A DNA stretch of 58,092 nt from contig CACWLT010000006.1 of assembly GCA_902761695.1 (NCBI GenBank), forward strand, positions 1 through 58,092. Reading direction: 5' to 3'. The DNA is from an uncultured Ruminococcus sp. GTDB taxonomy: Bacteria; Bacillota; Clostridia; Oscillospirales; CAG-272. The notes beneath the pieces were generated by a model. That model was not told where the DNA came from. It did not search any database and was given only the letters and a program-made list of their open reading frames with translations. The translations under genes were made by a program, and so were the position numbers. Below are positions 1 through 49,138 of this stretch, piece by piece; within the stretch, counting starts at the first letter, position 1, and each line of letters begins with the position of its first letter.

Positions 1-122
1 CAGGAGGTTTTTCGGTCCCGGCGCGGGAGGTGCGGGGGAGACGGGGATATTGTAGCACATTCCGGCGCGGGGGGCAAGAGGGAAGGGAGATGTTCCGGAT
101 TTCGGCAAATATACGGCGGCGC

Positions 123-151
123 TTGACATGTTGAGTTTTTCCCTGTATAAT
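123..151 (+). promoter_or_regulatory. SigA/sigma70-type promoter upstream of the first SBP gene
   Basis: TTGACA at 123-128, 17-nt spacer, TATAAT at 146-151; lies 44 nt upstream of the ATG at 195. Confidence 0.6.
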
Positions 152-194
152 GCAGTCAGATCGTTGCATCATTTATTTAAAGGAGACAAGGGGA

Positions 195-1679
195 ATGAAA
201 ATATCTGTCCGCGCGGTTTCCCTGCTTTTGACGCTGAGCCTGCTGTCCGCGGCGGGATGCTCTGCGCCCGAACCGGAGCCCGATGTGTCCTCCGCCTACA
301 CGCCTGCCGAAACGGAAGCGGCTCCCGAGGCTGAAGCGGCGCCCGAGGAGACACGACCGCCCCTGGGCCTTCCGGAGGCTGATTTCGGCGGGGCAGCCTT
401 CCGCATTTCCTGCTACGACGGCGGCAACTCCGTTCCCACGATCCAGCCCGAGGAGCTGACCGGGGAGGCGGTGAACGACGCCATCTACAACCGGAACACC
501 ATGCTGCAGGAGCAGTATGATTTCGTCTTTGACGCGGTATCCCACGACAACGACTACAACGGGCACACAAGGGAGATCGCGGCCATGGTGAGCGCCGGGG
601 ACGACTCCTTCGAGATGATTTACGGCCACGTGGTGGGGACCTGCAACAACGCCATCATCGGCAACTACATGAACCTCTATGATCTGCCCCATCTGGATTT
701 CGGCGCGGTGTGGTGGCCTGCGCAGTCCGTGGATGAGATGACGATTTTCGGGCGGATGTACACCATCACGGGGAGCGCGACCTACAGTCAGCTGGCGGCG
801 GCGAAGGTGGTGTTCTTCAACAAGGATCTGGCCGAGCAGTATGGTCTGGACGATCCCTACGAGCTGGTGCGGAACGGGGAATGGACCATCGACGCCCTTA
901 TCGACCGGACGGAGGGGATCTATCAGGACACGAACGGCGACGGGAAGCGGGATCCGGACGACCTTTACGGCTACGGCACGCATCCCATGCAGAACGGGTT
1001 CTTCGTCTCTACCAACACGCCTATTCTTTCCCGCACCGAGGACGGCGGCAAGGAGATTTCCGTCATGACGGACCGGACCGTGGCGCTGGTGGAGAAGCTC
1101 TACAGCTGGTATTACGAATCCGGCGGGGTTTATCTGAAATCCTCCGTGGCCGATCCCGGCGGATACGCGGACCGGTTCGCCACGGGGCACACGGTGTTCT
1201 CCTTCGGCCACATCATGCACGCGCCCGCCTACTACCGGAGCTCGGAGATTTCCTACGGCATCCTGCCCCAGCCGAAATACGACACGGCCCAGGAGAAGTA
1301 CATCGCCTTTGCCTGCCCCAGTCTGTTCAGCGTGCCGATCACGTGTCAGAACACGGAGATGACCGGTTTCGTCTTTGAGGCGATGACGTACTACGGCTAC
1401 TTCGACATCATTCCGGTTTACTACGAGACCACGCTGAAGGGGAAGATCGCGGACGCGCCGGACGACGTGGAGATGCTGGAGATCGTCAACGACGCGCTGA
1501 CCGTTTCCTTCGCCTACTGCTACGACAACTGGGAGGGCTTCGCTCATTTCCTCAGCGGCACGGTCATGAACTTCACGGAGACGTCGGGGAACAAGGACGT
1601 GGCCAGCGTCTTCGCCAAGCGGAACAAGATCGCGCAGAAGAGGCTGGAGAAATGCCTCAAGGCGTTCAGAGGGGACTAA
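195..1679 (+). CDS. Extracellular solute-binding lipoprotein (ABC-type sugar SBP, LplA-like), paralog 1
   Basis: ORF 150..1679 trimmed to the ATG at 195 (AAAGGAG upstream). N-terminus MKISVRAVSLLLTLSLLSAAGC is a lipoprotein signal peptide with lipobox. Motifs DPYELVRNGEWTID and DTNGDGKRD are shared with seven paralogs in this window. Confidence 0.8.
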   Translation: MKISVRAVSLLLTLSLLSAAGCSAPEPEPDVSSAYTPAETEAAPEAEAAPEETRPPLGLPEADFGGAAFRISCYDGGNSVPTIQPEELTGEAVNDAIYNRNTMLQEQYDFVFDAVSHDNDYNGHTREIAAMVSAGDDSFEMIYGHVVGTCNNAIIGNYMNLYDLPHLDFGAVWWPAQSVDEMTIFGRMYTITGSATYSQLAAAKVVFFNKDLAEQYGLDDPYELVRNGEWTIDALIDRTEGIYQDTNGDGKRDPDDLYGYGTHPMQNGFFVSTNTPILSRTEDGGKEISVMTDRTVALVEKLYSWYYESGGVYLKSSVADPGGYADRFATGHTVFSFGHIMHAPAYYRSSEISYGILPQPKYDTAQEKYIAFACPSLFSVPITCQNTEMTGFVFEAMTYYGYFDIIPVYYETTLKGKIADAPDDVEMLEIVNDALTVSFAYCYDNWEGFAHFLSGTVMNFTETSGNKDVASVFAKRNKIAQKRLEKCLKAFRGD

Positions 1680-1685
1680 GGAAGA

Positions 1686-1888
1686 TAATGCTAAATCCTT
1701 TCTAAGGGGATACGCGGCTTCTTGAAAGAAACCCAGAGCAGCAAGCTGCTCGGCAAGAACTTTATACTATCAACTGGTGCAGCGTTCTTCTTTACGTGCA
1801 GCACGGGGTAACGTACAGCGCATTATTTTCAGGTTATGCTTTTCGCGCATCATGGTCGGATTGCCCTTTTAGGCTGAGAAGAGCATAA
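1686..1888 (+). mobile_element. MITE-like TIR repeat, copy A (203 bp)
   Basis: Left end TAATGCTAAATCCTTTCTAAGGGGATACGCGGCTTCTTGAAAG. Right end CCCTTTTAGGCTGAGAAGAGCATAA is its imperfect reverse complement. Invariant core GTGCAGCACGGGGTAACGTACAGCGCA at 1796-1822. Starts 7 nt after the SBP stop codon. Confidence 0.75.
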
Positions 1889-1963
1889 GAAAACGGTAAA
1901 GGGTCTGCCCTGCGGTACTGATGTGCTGCGGGGCTTTTTGACACGGGGATTCTCTATGCGGGC

Positions 1964-1992
1964 TTGACAGGGTTTTGCGGGATTGCTATAAT
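1964..1992 (+). promoter_or_regulatory. Consensus SigA-type promoter
   Basis: TTGACA at 1964-1969, 17-nt spacer, TATAAT at 1987-1992 (perfect consensus); precedes the small ORF at 2023 and the GH gene at 2200. Confidence 0.65.
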
Positions 1993-2022
1993 AAAGTAAA
2001 GTCCGTGCATGAAGGATATCCC

Positions 2023-2175
2023 ATGAAACAGACGGGAAGACTGGCGGTGATGCTGCTGGCGGCGGCAATGCTTCCGGTTTCCTGTGCTTCGGAGAATCCG
2101 GAGAGCGGCGGGGTGACTCCACCTAAGGTTCAGACGAAAACCTATGATAAAATTATCGGGATGTTCGCGGACTGA
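2023..2175 (+). CDS. Small putative lipoprotein (50 aa)
   Basis: Internal ATG of ORF 1975..2175 with GAAGGA 6 nt upstream. MKQTGRLAVMLLAAAMLPVSCASE is a signal peptide plus lipobox. No homolog recalled; it could be the N-terminal remnant of an SBP gene. Confidence 0.4.
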   Translation: MKQTGRLAVMLLAAAMLPVSCASENPESGGVTPPKVQTKTYDKIIGMFAD

Positions 2176-33095: not shown

Positions 33096-34238
33096 ATGAG
33101 CACGAAGATTGCCGCGCTGACGGAGGAGATCGGCCGGGGGATCCGGGAGGGGCTCTTCGGCGCGTCCGGGGAGGTCTTCCTGACGGCCCGTCAGATCGTT
33201 GCGGCCTACGATGTGTCCCTGGACAGCGCCATGCGGATCCTCACCGGTCTGACGGAGGCCCGCCTCCTCCGTCTGGAGGGAAAGCGCTATTACGTCACCG
33301 CCGGGTACGCCGCGCCGGACAGTCCGCTGGGGGAGAAGCTGAACAGAAAGCGCAGGCCGCTTCTCGGGATGATTCTCAATTCCGTCGACAGCCCGTTTTT
33401 CTCCTCCCTGGCCAGGGAGCTGAGCACGGCGGCGGACCACGCGGACTACACGATCCTGATGGCGGACAGCGGAAACCGGCCGGAGCGGGACAAGGAGCTG
33501 CTCGACCTCTTCATCGGGCTGGGGGCCGCCGGGATCTTTATCGCGCCCAGCATTTCCGCCGATCCGGAGCTCTACGCCCGCTGTCCCGTGCCGCTGGTAT
33601 CTCTGGGGCGGGATCTGGGGCTTTCCAACTGCGACGCCGTGACGGTGAACAACGAGGCGGCGGGGCGGCAGGCGGCGGATCATCTGCGGGCGGTGGGCTG
33701 CACCAGGTTCGCCTACGTGGGCATCCGGCAGTATCTGGACGAGGACCCGCGGCTGCGCGGATACGCCGAACAGCTGGAGCGGCTGGGGATCCGTCCGGAG
33801 CGGGACGCTGTCCTTGCCGCGGATCAGCCGCCGGACCGGGGACTGGACTACGAATCCCTGTCGGGGCCGCTCGGGGCGCTGTTCCTCGGGATGGGGGAGG
33901 ACGAGAAGCTGGGGATCTTCTGCTATCACGATCTTCTGGCGTCCTACACCCTGCAGCGGGCGAAGCACTACAGCCACCTCTATCCCGGGCGGTTCCGCAT
34001 CCCGGAGGACGTGGCGGTGGTGGGCTTCGACGATCTGCCGGTGGCCTCCGTGATCGTGCCGCCGCTGACCACGGTGCGGTATCAGTACGGCGCTATCGCG
34101 GGGGTGGCCCTGACCTCCATGCTGGACTACATCGCCGATCCGGGACACACGCCGGGCAAGCACGAGATCTTTTCCTCCCTGAGCATCCGGGAGAGCACCA
34201 TGAAGACCGTAGGGGCGGCGGGGGAGGACGGAAGATGA
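33096..34238 (+). CDS. Transcriptional regulator: N-terminal winged-helix (GntR-like) plus LacI/PBP1 sugar-binding domain
   Basis: LTARQIVAAYDVSLDSAMRILTGL (wHTH-like); LLGMILNSVDSPFFSSLA and VVGFDDLPVASVIVPPLTTV (classic LacI-family ligand-domain motifs). Confidence 0.7.
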   Translation: MSTKIAALTEEIGRGIREGLFGASGEVFLTARQIVAAYDVSLDSAMRILTGLTEARLLRLEGKRYYVTAGYAAPDSPLGEKLNRKRRPLLGMILNSVDSPFFSSLARELSTAADHADYTILMADSGNRPERDKELLDLFIGLGAAGIFIAPSISADPELYARCPVPLVSLGRDLGLSNCDAVTVNNEAAGRQAADHLRAVGCTRFAYVGIRQYLDEDPRLRGYAEQLERLGIRPERDAVLAADQPPDRGLDYESLSGPLGALFLGMGEDEKLGIFCYHDLLASYTLQRAKHYSHLYPGRFRIPEDVAVVGFDDLPVASVIVPPLTTVRYQYGAIAGVALTSMLDYIADPGHTPGKHEIFSSLSIRESTMKTVGAAGEDGR

Positions 34239-35229: not shown

Positions 35230-35850
35230 TCAGGCCTTCAGCATTTCGCGGACGCGGTCGGCGATGATTCCGGCCTGGATATCGATGGCTTCGGCTCGGA
35301 AGTGAAAGGTGTCCGACCAGTACCGCTCCCGGTCCAGGGGATCCATGGCGGAGAACAGGTCGATCACGGGCAGATTCTGCTCCCGGGACAGGCGCAGGAC
35401 GGTCTCGTTCAGGGAAGCCGATATGGCGGTGAGGGCGGGATCCTTCAGGGGCGTGGAGAGGGTCAGGGCCAGCTTCGTCTCCGGGAGCTTCGCGCGGATG
35501 AACGCAACAGAGGAGGCATAGGCCGCGTCCCACTCCGCCCGGGCCGTGGTCAGGCTGTGGAGGCCGTTGTTGAAGCAGACCGCGTCATAGGGGCGGGCGT
35601 CCAGCATGAAGTCCAGCTCCCGGAAATAGTCCGGGTCTGTCACGCACTTGGAGGACGCCCAGAAGGAGACGTTCACCTCCCCGGCCAGCTTGTCCCGGAC
35701 GGCGCCGTTATAGCCGTTGCAGATGGAATCCCCGATGAGGAGGACCCGGGGGCGGCTCTCGTCCAGGGTGTCATAAGCGTATGTGATGCTCCATTCGATG
35801 CCTTCCCGTTTCCGGGAGGTGGAGCGAGGCGCAAAATCCTGCCATGTCAT
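35230..35850 (-). CDS. SGNH/GDSL hydrolase (carbohydrate esterase-like)
   Basis: ORF trimmed to MTWQ at 35850 (GGAGGA 7 nt upstream); VLLIGDSICNGY (block I), FNNGLH (block III), DTFH (block V). Confidence 0.75.
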   Translation of the reverse strand: MTWQDFAPRSTSRKREGIEWSITYAYDTLDESRPRVLLIGDSICNGYNGAVRDKLAGEVNVSFWASSKCVTDPDYFRELDFMLDARPYDAVCFNNGLHSLTTARAEWDAAYASSVAFIRAKLPETKLALTLSTPLKDPALTAISASLNETVLRLSREQNLPVIDLFSAMDPLDRERYWSDTFHFRAEAIDIQAGIIADRVREMLKA

Positions 35851-35943
35851 AGGGATATCCTCCATTGCGGCTGATGAATTGCGGGTTGGTTCCTCTATGC
35901 GGAACGCGGGCTTCTTTGGGGGAATTCGTGAAAGTCCCTTATG

Positions 35944-35972
35944 ATTGTAACACAATCCGGGAGATCCGTCAA
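35944..35972 (-). promoter_or_regulatory. Minus-strand SigA-type promoter with extended -10 for the SGNH gene
   Basis: Read on the minus strand: TTGACG (35972-35967), 17-nt spacer, TGTTACAAT (-10 at 35949-35944). Confidence 0.55.
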
Positions 35973-35979
35973 GGTATCC

Positions 35980-36051
35980 GGCGGAACGCTCGGCGGAACG
36001 CCCGGCAGAATGCCCGGCAGAATGCCCGGCAAAGTGCCTGGCAGAATGCCC
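35980..36051. repeat. Tandem array of six 12-nt units (consensus GGCAGAATGCCC), each an internal GGCA-N3-TGCC palindrome
   Basis: Units: GGCGGAACGCTC, GGCGGAACGCCC, GGCAGAATGCCC, GGCAGAATGCCC, GGCAAAGTGCCT, GGCAGAATGCCC. The array lies between the -35 boxes of two divergent promoters. Confidence 0.9.
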
Positions 36052-36073
36052 TTCATTTCCGCCGGCGGACTTC

Positions 36074-36102
36074 TTGACAGGGCGGCCGGTTTTTGCTATG
36101 AT
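36074..36102 (+). promoter_or_regulatory. SigA-type promoter for the metallophosphoesterase gene
   Basis: TTGACA at 36074-36079, 17-nt spacer ending TGC, TATGAT at 36097-36102. Confidence 0.55.
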
Positions 36103-36170
36103 GAAGGGGAACGGGAACCGTACGGCTGGCGGACAGCCGGCGCGGGGGCCGATACTCGACGCGGACGGCG

Positions 36171-37418
36171 ATGGACATGGAGAGGAAAGCAGTGAAACAG
36201 GTCATTTTGCGGTTTATGGCATGCAGCGATCTGCACTACAAGAACGATCCCGCCTGCCGGGAGAAAAAGCGCTTCGAGGAGGGGCTCCGCCAGCTGTATG
36301 CCTACGCGGATTCCCAGCCGTACAAAGCCGTAGATGCGGTGTACATCGTTGGGGATTTCACCGATCAGGGCACCATGGAGCAGATGACGCTGGTGAAGGA
36401 GTCCCTGGACCGGGGACTGCGGCCGGGAACGGAGGCGGTGCTCTGCATGGCGTCCCACGAATACGGCGGTCCGGGCGGACAGACGGGGGCGCGGGAGCGG
36501 TTCGGACAGATCTTCGGGCAGGACGCGGACACCCATCGCGTCATCCGGGGGTTTCACTTCATCGCCGTGTCCACGGACGAGGACTGCCGGTTCTGGGAGC
36601 CGCAGGTTTCCTTTGCCGCCGGAGCCCTGGAGGCTGCGCACGAGGATGATCCCCGGCGGGCGGTCTTTTTCTTCCAGCATCCCCATCTCACGGACACGGT
36701 GTACGGAAGCATCGTATGGGGGGAGCGGGACCTGAATCCGACCCTGTACAACTATCCGCAGGTCATCGATTTCTCCGGCCACTCCCATGTTCCGATCAAC
36801 GACCCGCGCTCCATCCATCAGGACTATGTCACGTCGGTGGGCACGGGAACCTTCAGCTATTTCGAGATGGACGAGTTCGACAAGATCTGCGGTACGTTTC
36901 CGCCCGACGCTGGGGAGGCGGCCCAGATGCAGATTGTGGAGGCCTTCGACGACGGCAGCGTGCTGATCAAGCCCTGGGATGTGCTCACGGGGCAGCCCTT
37001 CCACGAAGGATGGACGGTGGAGCGGCCCTGGGATCCGGCGTCCTTCGTCTACACGCGGCCCATCCGGTACCGGTTCGCGGAGAATCAGAAGCCCCGGTTC
37101 CCGGAAGGCGCGGTCCTCACGGCGGAGCAGACGGAGGCGGGCTTCAGGCTGACCTTCGATCACGCGGAGAAGGTGATGGGATCGGACGGCAGGGAAGAAG
37201 ACGTGGACGACTACGTCATTACGGTCCGGGACGGGGACGGGATCCTGTGCCGCCGGTTCGTGATCTGGTCGCCCTATTACCTGACGCGGCGGCCGGAGAA
37301 GATGAGCTACGATTTCCCGAAGCTGAAAAAGGGCGTCTACACCGTGGCGGTGAAGGCCCGGGGTTTCTGGCGCAACGAATCGGAGGACTGCCTCAAAGCG
37401 GAGCTGATCGTTGAGTGA
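36171..37418 (+). CDS. Calcineurin-like metallophosphoesterase with a C-terminal beta-rich domain
   Basis: FMACSDLH, VGDFTDQG, SHEY, FFFQHPH and FSGHSHVP motifs. The true start may be the GTG at 36192 (GGAGAGGA upstream). Confidence 0.7.
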   Translation: MDMERKAVKQVILRFMACSDLHYKNDPACREKKRFEEGLRQLYAYADSQPYKAVDAVYIVGDFTDQGTMEQMTLVKESLDRGLRPGTEAVLCMASHEYGGPGGQTGARERFGQIFGQDADTHRVIRGFHFIAVSTDEDCRFWEPQVSFAAGALEAAHEDDPRRAVFFFQHPHLTDTVYGSIVWGERDLNPTLYNYPQVIDFSGHSHVPINDPRSIHQDYVTSVGTGTFSYFEMDEFDKICGTFPPDAGEAAQMQIVEAFDDGSVLIKPWDVLTGQPFHEGWTVERPWDPASFVYTRPIRYRFAENQKPRFPEGAVLTAEQTEAGFRLTFDHAEKVMGSDGREEDVDDYVITVRDGDGILCRRFVIWSPYYLTRRPEKMSYDFPKLKKGVYTVAVKARGFWRNESEDCLKAELIVE

Positions 37419-47609: not shown

Positions 47610-49138
47610 ATGAAAAAAACAGTTTCACTTCTGCTGGCGTTTTTTCTGCTTCTGACATCACTGGCGGCCTGCGGGGAGAGCGAAGAGAACGCGGGGACCG
47701 ATAACGCGGGATCCGTACAGTCCGGCGGCGACGGCAATCCTTCCGCGGAAACGGAGGCGGAGACCGAATCCCCCACGCCGAACTGGGACGTTGTCTCAAA
47801 GACGGATCTTGGCGGGATGGACATTATTGCCACCACCAACGACTTCGATTCCAACTTCTACAACGTTCTGGACTGGGACGAGATCACCGGGGACAATCTG
47901 AAGGACGCCATGTACAACCGCAACCGGGCCGTGGAGAGCGCGCTGAACTGCGTCTTCTCCGTGGTCTACGGCGGCGGGACCGGCATACTGGAAAAATCCG
48001 TCTCGGCGGGAAGCGGGGACGTGGATTTCGCCTACAACCTGGTCAGCGCGGGCGGCGGACTGATCCAGAAGGGGTATCTCTCGCCCTTCGACATGCTGGA
48101 CAACATCGACATGACGAAGGCGTACTGGGATCAGGGCGCGCAAAAATACCTCCGGATCCTCGGGAAGATGTATTTCGGCTTCGTCGAATCCTGGGGAAGA
48201 TGTATTTCGGCTTCGTGGATTTCGGCTTCGACCACTACGACTCCCTGGCGGTGCTGTTCTACAACGGCAAGCTGGTGACCGACTATCAGCTGGAGGATCC
48301 TCAGGAGATGGTGCTGGAGGACACCTGGACCATCGACAAGATGTCCGATCAGATCGCCGCGGTGCTGACCGACGTCAACGGGGACGGGAAGTACACGCTG
48401 ACGGAGGACGTATTCGGTCTGACGGGCCGGGAATACTGGTTCCAGCCCTTCCTGAACCGCTCCGGCGAATACCTCATCACCTGGGACGACAAGGCGGAGA
48501 ATTTCGTGCTCCACATGACCGACGACCGGTTCGTGCGGGTGTCCGAGGTGATCACCTCCATCTACAGCAGCCAGAATCCGGCGACGGACTACTCCGACTA
48601 TGACAAGGGGCGCGTCGCGTTCTCCGAGGGACGGTCCCTGTTCTACTTCCGCCTGCCGGGCGACTTCCGGCAGCTGCGCGAGGTGGAGGACGACTACGGC
48701 GTGGTGTGCTTCCCGCGGTATGCCGAGGACGGCGGCAATTCCTCCTATTTCGTGAAGAATCCCACGACCCTGTATCTGCCCACGGTGGTCTGCGATGCCA
48801 ACGGGGACGGGCGGCAGGACTACGACGAGATCGGCGCGTTCCTCGAGGCCATGGGCGCGTACACGTACGACAACACGCTGGACGTCTATCTGGAGAACAC
48901 CGTCATCGGCAAGGGCATGCGGGACGAGCGGTCCGCAGACATGGTGCGGCTGATGATGAAAAACCGCTCCTTCGACCTGGGCGAGGCCTTCAGTCTCCAC
49001 GACGTGATGGACATTTACCGCCTTGCCGTCATCAAGGGAGAGGGTCTGGCCTCCAGCGAGCAGAAGGCGGAGAAGTTCTTCAACCGGCTGACGTCCAAGA
49101 TCGTCGACAAGATCCGGGAATTCGATATCGGAAACTGA
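47610..49138 (+). pseudogene. Solute-binding lipoprotein, paralog 8, frameshifted by a 32-bp tandem duplication
   Basis: ORF 47610..48278 (MKKTVSLLLAFFLLLTSLAACGESE…LGKMYFGFVESWGRC…*) and ORF 48200..49138 (MYFGFVDFGFDHYDSLAVLFYNGKL…). Removing one repeat copy restores a single frame reading …ILGKMYFGFVDFGFDHYD…. Confidence 0.75.
48156..48219 (+). repeat. 32-bp direct tandem duplication (2 mismatches) inside the SBP gene
   Basis: 48156-48187 ATCCTCGGGAAGATGTATTTCGGCTTCGTCGA; 48188-48219 ATCCTGGGGAAGATGTATTTCGGCTTCGTGGA. Confidence 0.9.

Follow-up and report, generated by a model that had tools for sequence, protein, structure and literature searches.

A strain-variable 12-nt minisatellite between two divergent predicted promoters in uncultured rumen Clostridia

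The DNA analysed in this study, hereafter the window, is a stretch of 58,092 nt with a G+C content of 62.7%, and it is a rumen metagenome scaffold (ENA ERZ28613096, STEW19-1_SAMEA5383797 scaffold_879). Two divergent genes, encoding an SGNH/GDSL-family esterase and a metallophosphoesterase, are separated in it by an intergenic region of 341 nt, which has no conserved ORF and bears a tandem array of 12-nt units. According to Pfam, a GH43/F5-8 type C gene comes next after the metallophosphoesterase gene in the rightward direction, and farther left of the SGNH gene there are genes for a GFO/IDH/MocA oxidoreductase, a Peripla_BP_3 regulator with a non-LacI N-terminus and a PfkB kinase. GH20, GH31, GH43-like and DUF4838 genes and one choloylglycine-hydrolase-family gene were recognized by Pfam in the rest of the window, and the four other ORFs scanned there gave no Pfam match. 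The window is a glycan-utilisation island. The named homologs of the metallophosphoesterase come from metagenome-assembled genomes of Clostridia, Oscillospiraceae and Ruminococcaceae. A tRNA scan of the window found nothing, and no Rfam match reached the gathering score anywhere in it. The features of the divergent gene pair and the region between them are as follows.

35230..35850, minus strand (leftward): SGNH/GDSL-family esterase gene, 206 aa (Pfam PF13472, E=4e-8; also called in public assemblies)
35899..35907, no strand: solitary GCGGAACGC within the SGNH 5' leader, some 70 nt away from the array; identical to the core of units 1-2
35944..35972, minus strand: predicted sigma-70-type promoter of the SGNH esterase gene (consensus scan, 10/12)
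35980..36051, no strand: tandem array of six imperfect 12-nt units, consensus (C)GGCRGAAYGCC (sequence, Tandem Repeats Finder, shuffle test, copy number in other assemblies)
36058..36069, no strand: perfect 12-bp palindrome TCCGCCGGCGGA, 4 nt upstream of the rightward -35, invariant in 10/10 sequences
36074..36102, plus strand: predicted sigma-70-type promoter of the metallophosphoesterase gene (consensus scan, 11/12)
36192..37418, plus strand: metallophosphoesterase gene (Pfam PF00149; likeliest start GTG 36192, preceded by GGAGAGGAAA)

From 35980 the units read GGCGGAACGCTC, GGCGGAACGCCC, GGCAGAATGCCC, GGCAGAATGCCC, GGCAAAGTGCCT and GGCAGAATGCCC, and 36051 is the last base. These are the same six head-to-tail units that had been described in an earlier, sequence-only reading of this DNA, and both Tandem Repeats Finder and a shuffle test agree with them. 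Tandem Repeats Finder gives 35978..36051, period 12, 6.2 copies, 83% matches, no indels and a score of 78 (92 at period 24); no other array in the window whose unit exceeds 3 nt has more than 3.2 copies. Of the 60 positions compared in the best-scoring 72-nt stretch of the window, 52 are self-matches at period 12. Two hundred dinucleotide-preserving shuffles of the window, each scored at whichever of periods 6-24 was best, averaged 33.9 self-matches (sd 1.3) and reached 38 at most. The periodicity of the array is far beyond chance.

The sequence-only reading had also called the array perfect and each unit a small inverted repeat. The head-to-tail register is indeed kept, but the units themselves differ; a 4+4 palindrome with a 3-nt centre is present in units 2-6, whereas in unit 1 three of the four arm pairs are formed. 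Both main unit types, GGCG-N3-CGCC and GGCA-N3-TGCC, are palindromic. Its capacity to form hairpins or cruciforms is unremarkable for the array as a whole: the single-strand fold has a z of -1.76, and 9 of 200 shuffles fold equally well.

The array is flanked by two predicted promoters, which were the only sites found in a consensus promoter scan of 35400..36600 (two sites against 0.3 expected). In the SGNH promoter the -35 is TTGACG (35972..35967) and the -10 is TACAAT (35949..35944); in the metallophosphoesterase promoter they are TTGACA (36074..36079) and TATGAT (36097..36102). Both promoters have a 17-nt spacer and a TG-extended -10. The leftward -35 is 7 nt from the array and the array is 22 nt from the rightward -35, so the positions of both sites and the widths of both gaps had been read correctly before. 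The distance from -35 to -35 in the window is 101 nt.

Other assemblies of this locus were traced through exact or near-exact copies of both flanking proteins, and nine beyond the window were recovered. The samples found with this locus include ERR3211447, SRR24639054 and those whose runs underlie ERZ27257202, ERZ27256871, ERZ27257205, ERZ12302852, ERZ28614005 and Ga0310691. Intergenic regions were parsed between the conserved anchors GATCCGTCAAGG.. and CTTCATTTCCGCCGGC and then aligned, which gave the following alleles.

Window: 6 units; reference allele
L089: 6 units; unit 1 ends GCC, unit 3 is GGCAAAGTGCC
L116: 6 units; unit 3 is GGCAAAGTGCC
L117: 6 units; unit 3 ends TGTC
L006: 7 units; the L117 allele plus one exact extra copy of unit 1
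L118: 7 units; other unit order, with GGCAGAACGCC, GGCAAAATGCC and TGTCAGAATGCC
L115: 3 units; 36 nt gone between two identical GGCAGAATGCCC units
L111, L112 and L113: 1 unit each; a single unit-like copy, GGCAGGACGCC

The first seven of these belong to the same species, their flanking kilobases being 0.5-2.5% diverged; L006, for example, differs from its closest relative, L117, by 16 substitutions in about 3.2 kb. The flanks of L111-L113 are ~8% diverged from those of the other seven, and these three therefore represent a sister lineage. A variable-number tandem repeat (VNTR) had been offered in the sequence-only reading as the alternative to a protein-binding array, with a comparison of copy number across strains as the check. 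Copy number does vary, in whole 12-nt steps: the ten independent assemblies have 6, 6, 6, 6, 7, 7 and 3 units in the same species and 1 unit in the sister lineage. Compared with the window, the length changes are +12, -36 and -60 nt, always of whole units, in register and bounded by unit edges. The distance between the two promoters, measured from -35 to -35, consequently ranges from 42 to 113 nt, with values of 42, 65, 101 or 113 nt, and the intergenic region as a whole measures 287-353 nt.

Sequence variation is found within the units as well. Within the 72 nt of the array, 4 sites segregate among the four 6-unit alleles. Among the seven same-species alleles, there is 1 segregating site in the 129 nt of the left flank, from the array to the SGNH start codon, and none in the 52 nt of the right flank, from the array to the end of the -10. 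Ten unit types occur over all alleles, and 7 of the 12 unit positions vary, palindrome arms included. In five unit types (GGCAGAATGTC, GGCAGAACGCC, TGTCAGAATGCC, GGCGGAACGCT and the single-copy GGCAGGACGCC) the 4+4 palindrome is broken without compensation. In L089 and L116, unit 3 has AAAG, a two-base variant that is also present in unit 5; this speaks for exchange between units rather than for repeated, independent point mutation. As far as can be judged from these alleles, the tract behaves as a slippage-prone minisatellite and not as a set of sites held by a DNA-binding protein.

The promoters on the two sides are constant. Their hexamers are identical in all ten strain sequences, including those of the ~8%-diverged lineage, and so is the segment of roughly 22 nt that separates the array from the rightward -35. 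The right half of the palindrome in this segment, CGGCGGA of TCCGCCGGCGGA, is the same as the start of array units 1-2; the palindrome may be a real protein site, or it may be the seed of the repeat. The solitary GCGGAACGC in the SGNH leader is present in both lineages, L113 alone having a 1-nt gap in it, and is possibly coincidental. On the left side another palindrome, ATTGT-AAC-ACAAT (ATTGTAACACAAT, 35944..35956), overlaps the extended -10 TGTTACAAT of the SGNH promoter on the minus strand, and its centre is AGC in the sister lineage. We considered ATTGT-N3-ACAAT as an operator of the neighbouring regulator and rejected it, as the window has 7 matches against 6.6 expected; three of the six other matches contain the extended -10 box TGnTACAAT.

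The strain alignment also bears on the start of the metallophosphoesterase. In public gene calls it starts at ATG 36171 and has 415 aa, while a start at GTG 36192 gives 408 aa. Since ATG 36171 and ATG 36177 are missing in L089, L116 and L111-L113, whereas the strains share GTG 36192 and, ahead of it, a purine-rich stretch that resembles a Shine-Dalgarno sequence, GTG 36192 is the likely start. A length of 408 aa is found in 6 of the 14 members of the metallophosphoesterase cluster. The 5' leader of this gene (36103..36191) falls into three or more haplotypes, which are strongly diverged and have 1-nt indels, and the promoter just upstream of it is identical. Some leader positions are common to L089, L116 and the ~8%-diverged lineage, which suggests that recombination has taken place.

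The array is thus a strain-variable bacterial minisatellite (VNTR) between two divergent predicted promoters. It may have arisen by duplication of a single 12-nt segment, and the one-unit state would still be present in the sister lineage. Whole units would then have been gained and lost and variants exchanged between units, most simply by slipped-strand mispairing or unequal recombination. Since the tract is upstream of both -35 boxes, it is outside both predicted transcripts and promoter geometry is untouched; a change of copy number would alter only the length of DNA between the promoters and the -35/-10 geometry of neither.

In our judgement the tract is probably a nearly neutral spacer whose quantitative effect on expression, if any, is modest, and not a protein-binding array. 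From -40 to -60 the rightward promoter has non-repeat sequence that does not change with copy number. The corresponding region of the leftward promoter consists of units 1-2 and is similar in the 3-7-unit alleles. Because these regions are constant or nearly so, and because steps of 12 bp break helical phase, near-neutrality is the likely state. Six of the seven same-species alleles have 6-7 units, however, and this could reflect selection for a longer spacer.

It is possible, though not probable, that the length of the tract sets the distance and the helical face between flanking elements, either two RNA polymerases or proteins at the flanking palindromes, and in this way tunes one or both genes. 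Copy number varies exactly in the DNA that separates the two promoters, and the flanks, including TCCGCCGGCGGA at 36058..36069 and ATTGT-N3-ACAAT at 35944..35956, are invariant. However, with -40 to -60 regions that are constant or similar, any direct effect on either promoter should be small. Steps of 12 bp lose helical phase, the observed spacings have no preferred phase, and ATTGT-N3-ACAAT is not enriched in the window.

Tuning by spacing does have published precedents in nadA (PMC2791445) and clbR (PMC7364221). At the nadA promoter, the repeat number between NadR operators changes expression, likely through operator spacing (PMC2791445). The tract described here resembles the TAAA tract of nadA in Neisseria meningitidis in that the repeat is outside the core promoter and alters the spacing of flanking elements, not that of -35 and -10 (PMC2791445). 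The nadA tract differs in being a 4-bp microsatellite with mapped NadR operators, an IHF site and demonstrated phase variation. Like the present array, the TAAA tract is located upstream of the -35. In the colibactin pks island of E. coli, an 8-bp VNTR of 2-20 copies lies between the divergent genes clbR and clbB, and clbR expression changes about 2-fold (PMC7364221). Both loci have a strain-variable short repeat between divergent transcripts, but the clb VNTR belongs to the 5'UTR of clbR, past the transcription start, and its effect was measured (PMC7364221). The units here are imperfect, 12 bp long and upstream of both predicted -35 boxes, so that they are presumably untranscribed.

A stronger form of the same idea, which we regard as doubtful, is that the tract acts as a copy-number 'dial' on interference or coupling of back-to-back promoters in a hemicellulose-degradation locus. 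Polymerases that crowd each other at 42 nt but act independently at about 100 nt might produce such coupling, as might local supercoiling or proteins bound to the flanking palindromes. Most documented cases of repeat-mediated expression heterogeneity so far concern surface and virulence genes in pathogens. If the 'dial' were true, it would confer heritable, reversible expression heterogeneity of carbohydrate-active enzymes on a commensal rumen anaerobe. Any effect of copy number on expression of the esterase or of the phosphoesterase and GH43 genes would extend repeat-mediated tuning to polysaccharide utilisation in gut commensals.

Other close counterparts of the tract are the intergenic VNTRs of the MLVA/MIRU type, which serve as bacterial strain typing markers (e.g. 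PMC1853098, PMC3635867). Like the tract, they have imperfect units and whole-unit polymorphism between strains, and usually they have no assigned function. They were described in cultured pathogens and their units are often longer, whereas the present array is from uncultured rumen Clostridia and is located precisely between two promoters. It adds a hitherto undescribed case to a familiar class of features, one more intergenic VNTR, and should not surprise specialists. It is nevertheless of use in two ways: as a short strain marker, which reads can span, for an uncultured rumen Clostridia population, and as a natural allelic series of 42, 65, 101 and 113 nt between otherwise identical divergent promoters, with which effects of distance on divergent transcription can be studied.

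Repeats of similar composition are not confined to this locus. A degenerate 3-unit pattern, run against 185,579 species genomes (a single genome for each species), matched 79 loci in many phyla; the species of the window was not among the matches. Open frames of at least 150 codons contain 73 of the 79 loci. Those inspected are coding repeats, namely the (GGMP)n tails of GroEL and thermosome, a secreted protein with PAERP repeats (L042), ARQN repeats (L034) and AECP repeats (L066). Because the 79 loci are spread over many phyla and mostly lie in long open frames, G+C-rich 12-mer repeats seem to arise repeatedly and independently, and they do not represent a conserved regulatory element. The DNA unit of the (GGMP)n tails, GGCGGAATGCCC, is nearly identical to GGCAGAATGCCC and is also arranged head to tail, but those repeats are coding and the array here is intergenic. 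The resemblance is convergent.

The other alternative offered in the sequence-only reading was a multimeric operator or activator array for both divergent genes. According to this explanation each palindromic unit would be a site for a regulator, such as the one with a GntR-type winged helix and a sugar-binding domain at 33096, which would coat the region and control both promoters. We consider it improbable. Units 2-6 are small inverted repeats placed between two promoters, and the palindrome is intact in the G..C as well as in the A..T type of unit, which is what selection for symmetry should produce. These palindromic types, however, are also the two CpG transition products of one sequence, and the kept palindrome is therefore only weak evidence for symmetry selection. 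The units of an operator array would be expected to be constant and symmetric, and the array to be present at the orthologous promoter in relatives. Across strains the units vary at 7 of 12 positions and five types break the arms without compensation. The sister lineage, at ~8% divergence, has both promoters with one unit-like copy, and the 64%-identical ortholog has none.

CGGCAGAAT occurs three times outside the array (14612, 24172 and 50130, the last on the minus strand within a long ORF) against 0.53 expected in the whole window, and two of the three sites are intergenic, which is in favour of an operator. None of the three 9-mers, however, has a second arm. The half-sites that had been noticed at about 14610 and 24172 thus exist as CGGCAGAAT 9-mers, but with an incomplete palindrome they are not convincing. 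Elsewhere in the 58-kb window, matches to GGCAGAATGCC (up to 2 mismatches allowed), to GGCGGAACGCC (up to 1 allowed) and to GGCRNNNYGCC are no more frequent than chance predicts. This covers, for the 58-kb window, the proposed search for clusters of the motif at other promoters. To our knowledge, no operator type consists of a 4+4-bp palindrome at a 12-bp period.

The regulator gene in question (33096..34238) encodes a Peripla_BP_3 sugar-binding domain and gave no match to a LacI-type HTH. Its N-terminus presumably resembles a GntR-type winged helix, in an AraR-like architecture. No candidate operator for this regulator was found near the array.

There is very little chance that the differences in copy number are artefacts of assembling a short repeat. 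Every allele does come from a short-read metagenome assembly. However, the whole tract, at 36-84 nt, is below the typical read length, and its units are imperfect, with exact internal repeats of at most about 32 nt. The 6-unit sequence of the window is identical in three other assemblies (one from run ERR3211447; the others are in ENA and are taken to be from the same sample), and the 1-unit allele was seen in three assemblies from different samples. The junction k-mers of the 3-unit allele should not be obtainable from a 6-unit template, and the 31-mer that joins unit 2 to the right flank would be specific to that allele. Four contigs are named k141; if this name records the word length, the word would be longer than the whole array. 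It is unlikely that the alleles are assembly artefacts.

It is hardly credible that the array is coding, whether for a small protein or for an N-terminal extension, and yields the 4-residue repeats PGRM, NARQ or ILPG. A 12-nt period preserves the frame, ORFs of 84, 70 and 53 codons span the array, the frame from ATG 35941 continues in frame into the metallophosphoesterase in L089 and L116, and similar 12-nt repeats code for protein in other genomes. All three ORFs, however, are down to 20-27 codons in L111-L113, and frame-shifting indels distinguish strains in the 5' leader; the ORFs are spurious, as they had been judged to be from the sequence. In addition, ATG 35941 is inside the leftward -10 box and has no ribosome-binding site, and the rightward promoter falls inside the ORF that starts there.

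Other readings were considered as well. A structured RNA has no Rfam match in its favour, and the tract is upstream of both predicted starts. The 12-bp centromere repeats of tubC, which are bound by TubR, have the same period; for plasmid iterons or centromere repeats, though, there are no replication or partition genes nearby, and the annotated neighbours are mostly carbohydrate-metabolism genes. A phase-variable contingency locus would have its tract between -35 and -10, within a reading frame or between mapped operators; the present tract precedes both predicted -35 boxes and overlaps no conserved ORF, and its differences in copy number were seen between samples. Compared by eye, the sequence does not fit a sigma-54 promoter, OmpR/PhoB or SARP 11-bp direct repeats, LexA boxes or G-quadruplex or i-motif tracts.

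Gene order around the phosphoesterase is different in more distant orthologs. The closest ortholog outside the species group (L090, 64% identity) has no SGNH neighbour, no array and no divergent gene pair. The orthologs at 64-69% identity (P0003, P0006 and L090) have another gene order, and they therefore provide no orthologous divergent promoter for comparison.

Two further sequences, L007 (P0002) and L114 (P0122), have the phosphoesterase in other upstream contexts and were excluded from the comparison of alleles. In L007 (ENA ERZ28612959 scaffold_97600), positions 780..2105 encode a 441-aa protein that is 99% identical to the metallophosphoesterase of the window over 73% of its length. Its N-terminus is different and signal-peptide-like (MKRKLTCRHVAAVWAVAAAW...), and the upstream DNA is unrelated. 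This is either a replacement of a domain or segment or a chimeric contig. The protein of L114 (Logan SRR28341246, positions 1..1500) belongs to the same cluster at 90% identity; upstream, in place of the SGNH esterase, L114 has an opposite-strand gene of 501 aa, and the array-bearing intergenic region is absent. Thus, gene order at this locus varies between close relatives.

Elsewhere in the window, a 32-nt tandem duplication at 48156..48219 has 2 mismatches between its copies and the highest Tandem Repeats Finder score of the window (115). It splits a 498-aa lipoprotein-like ORF into overlapping frames (ORFs 47610..48278 and 48200..49138). The duplication is either an assembly error or a real frameshifting event, that is, a pseudogene or another unstable repeat. 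Deletion of one 32-nt copy in silico makes the ORF continuous again.
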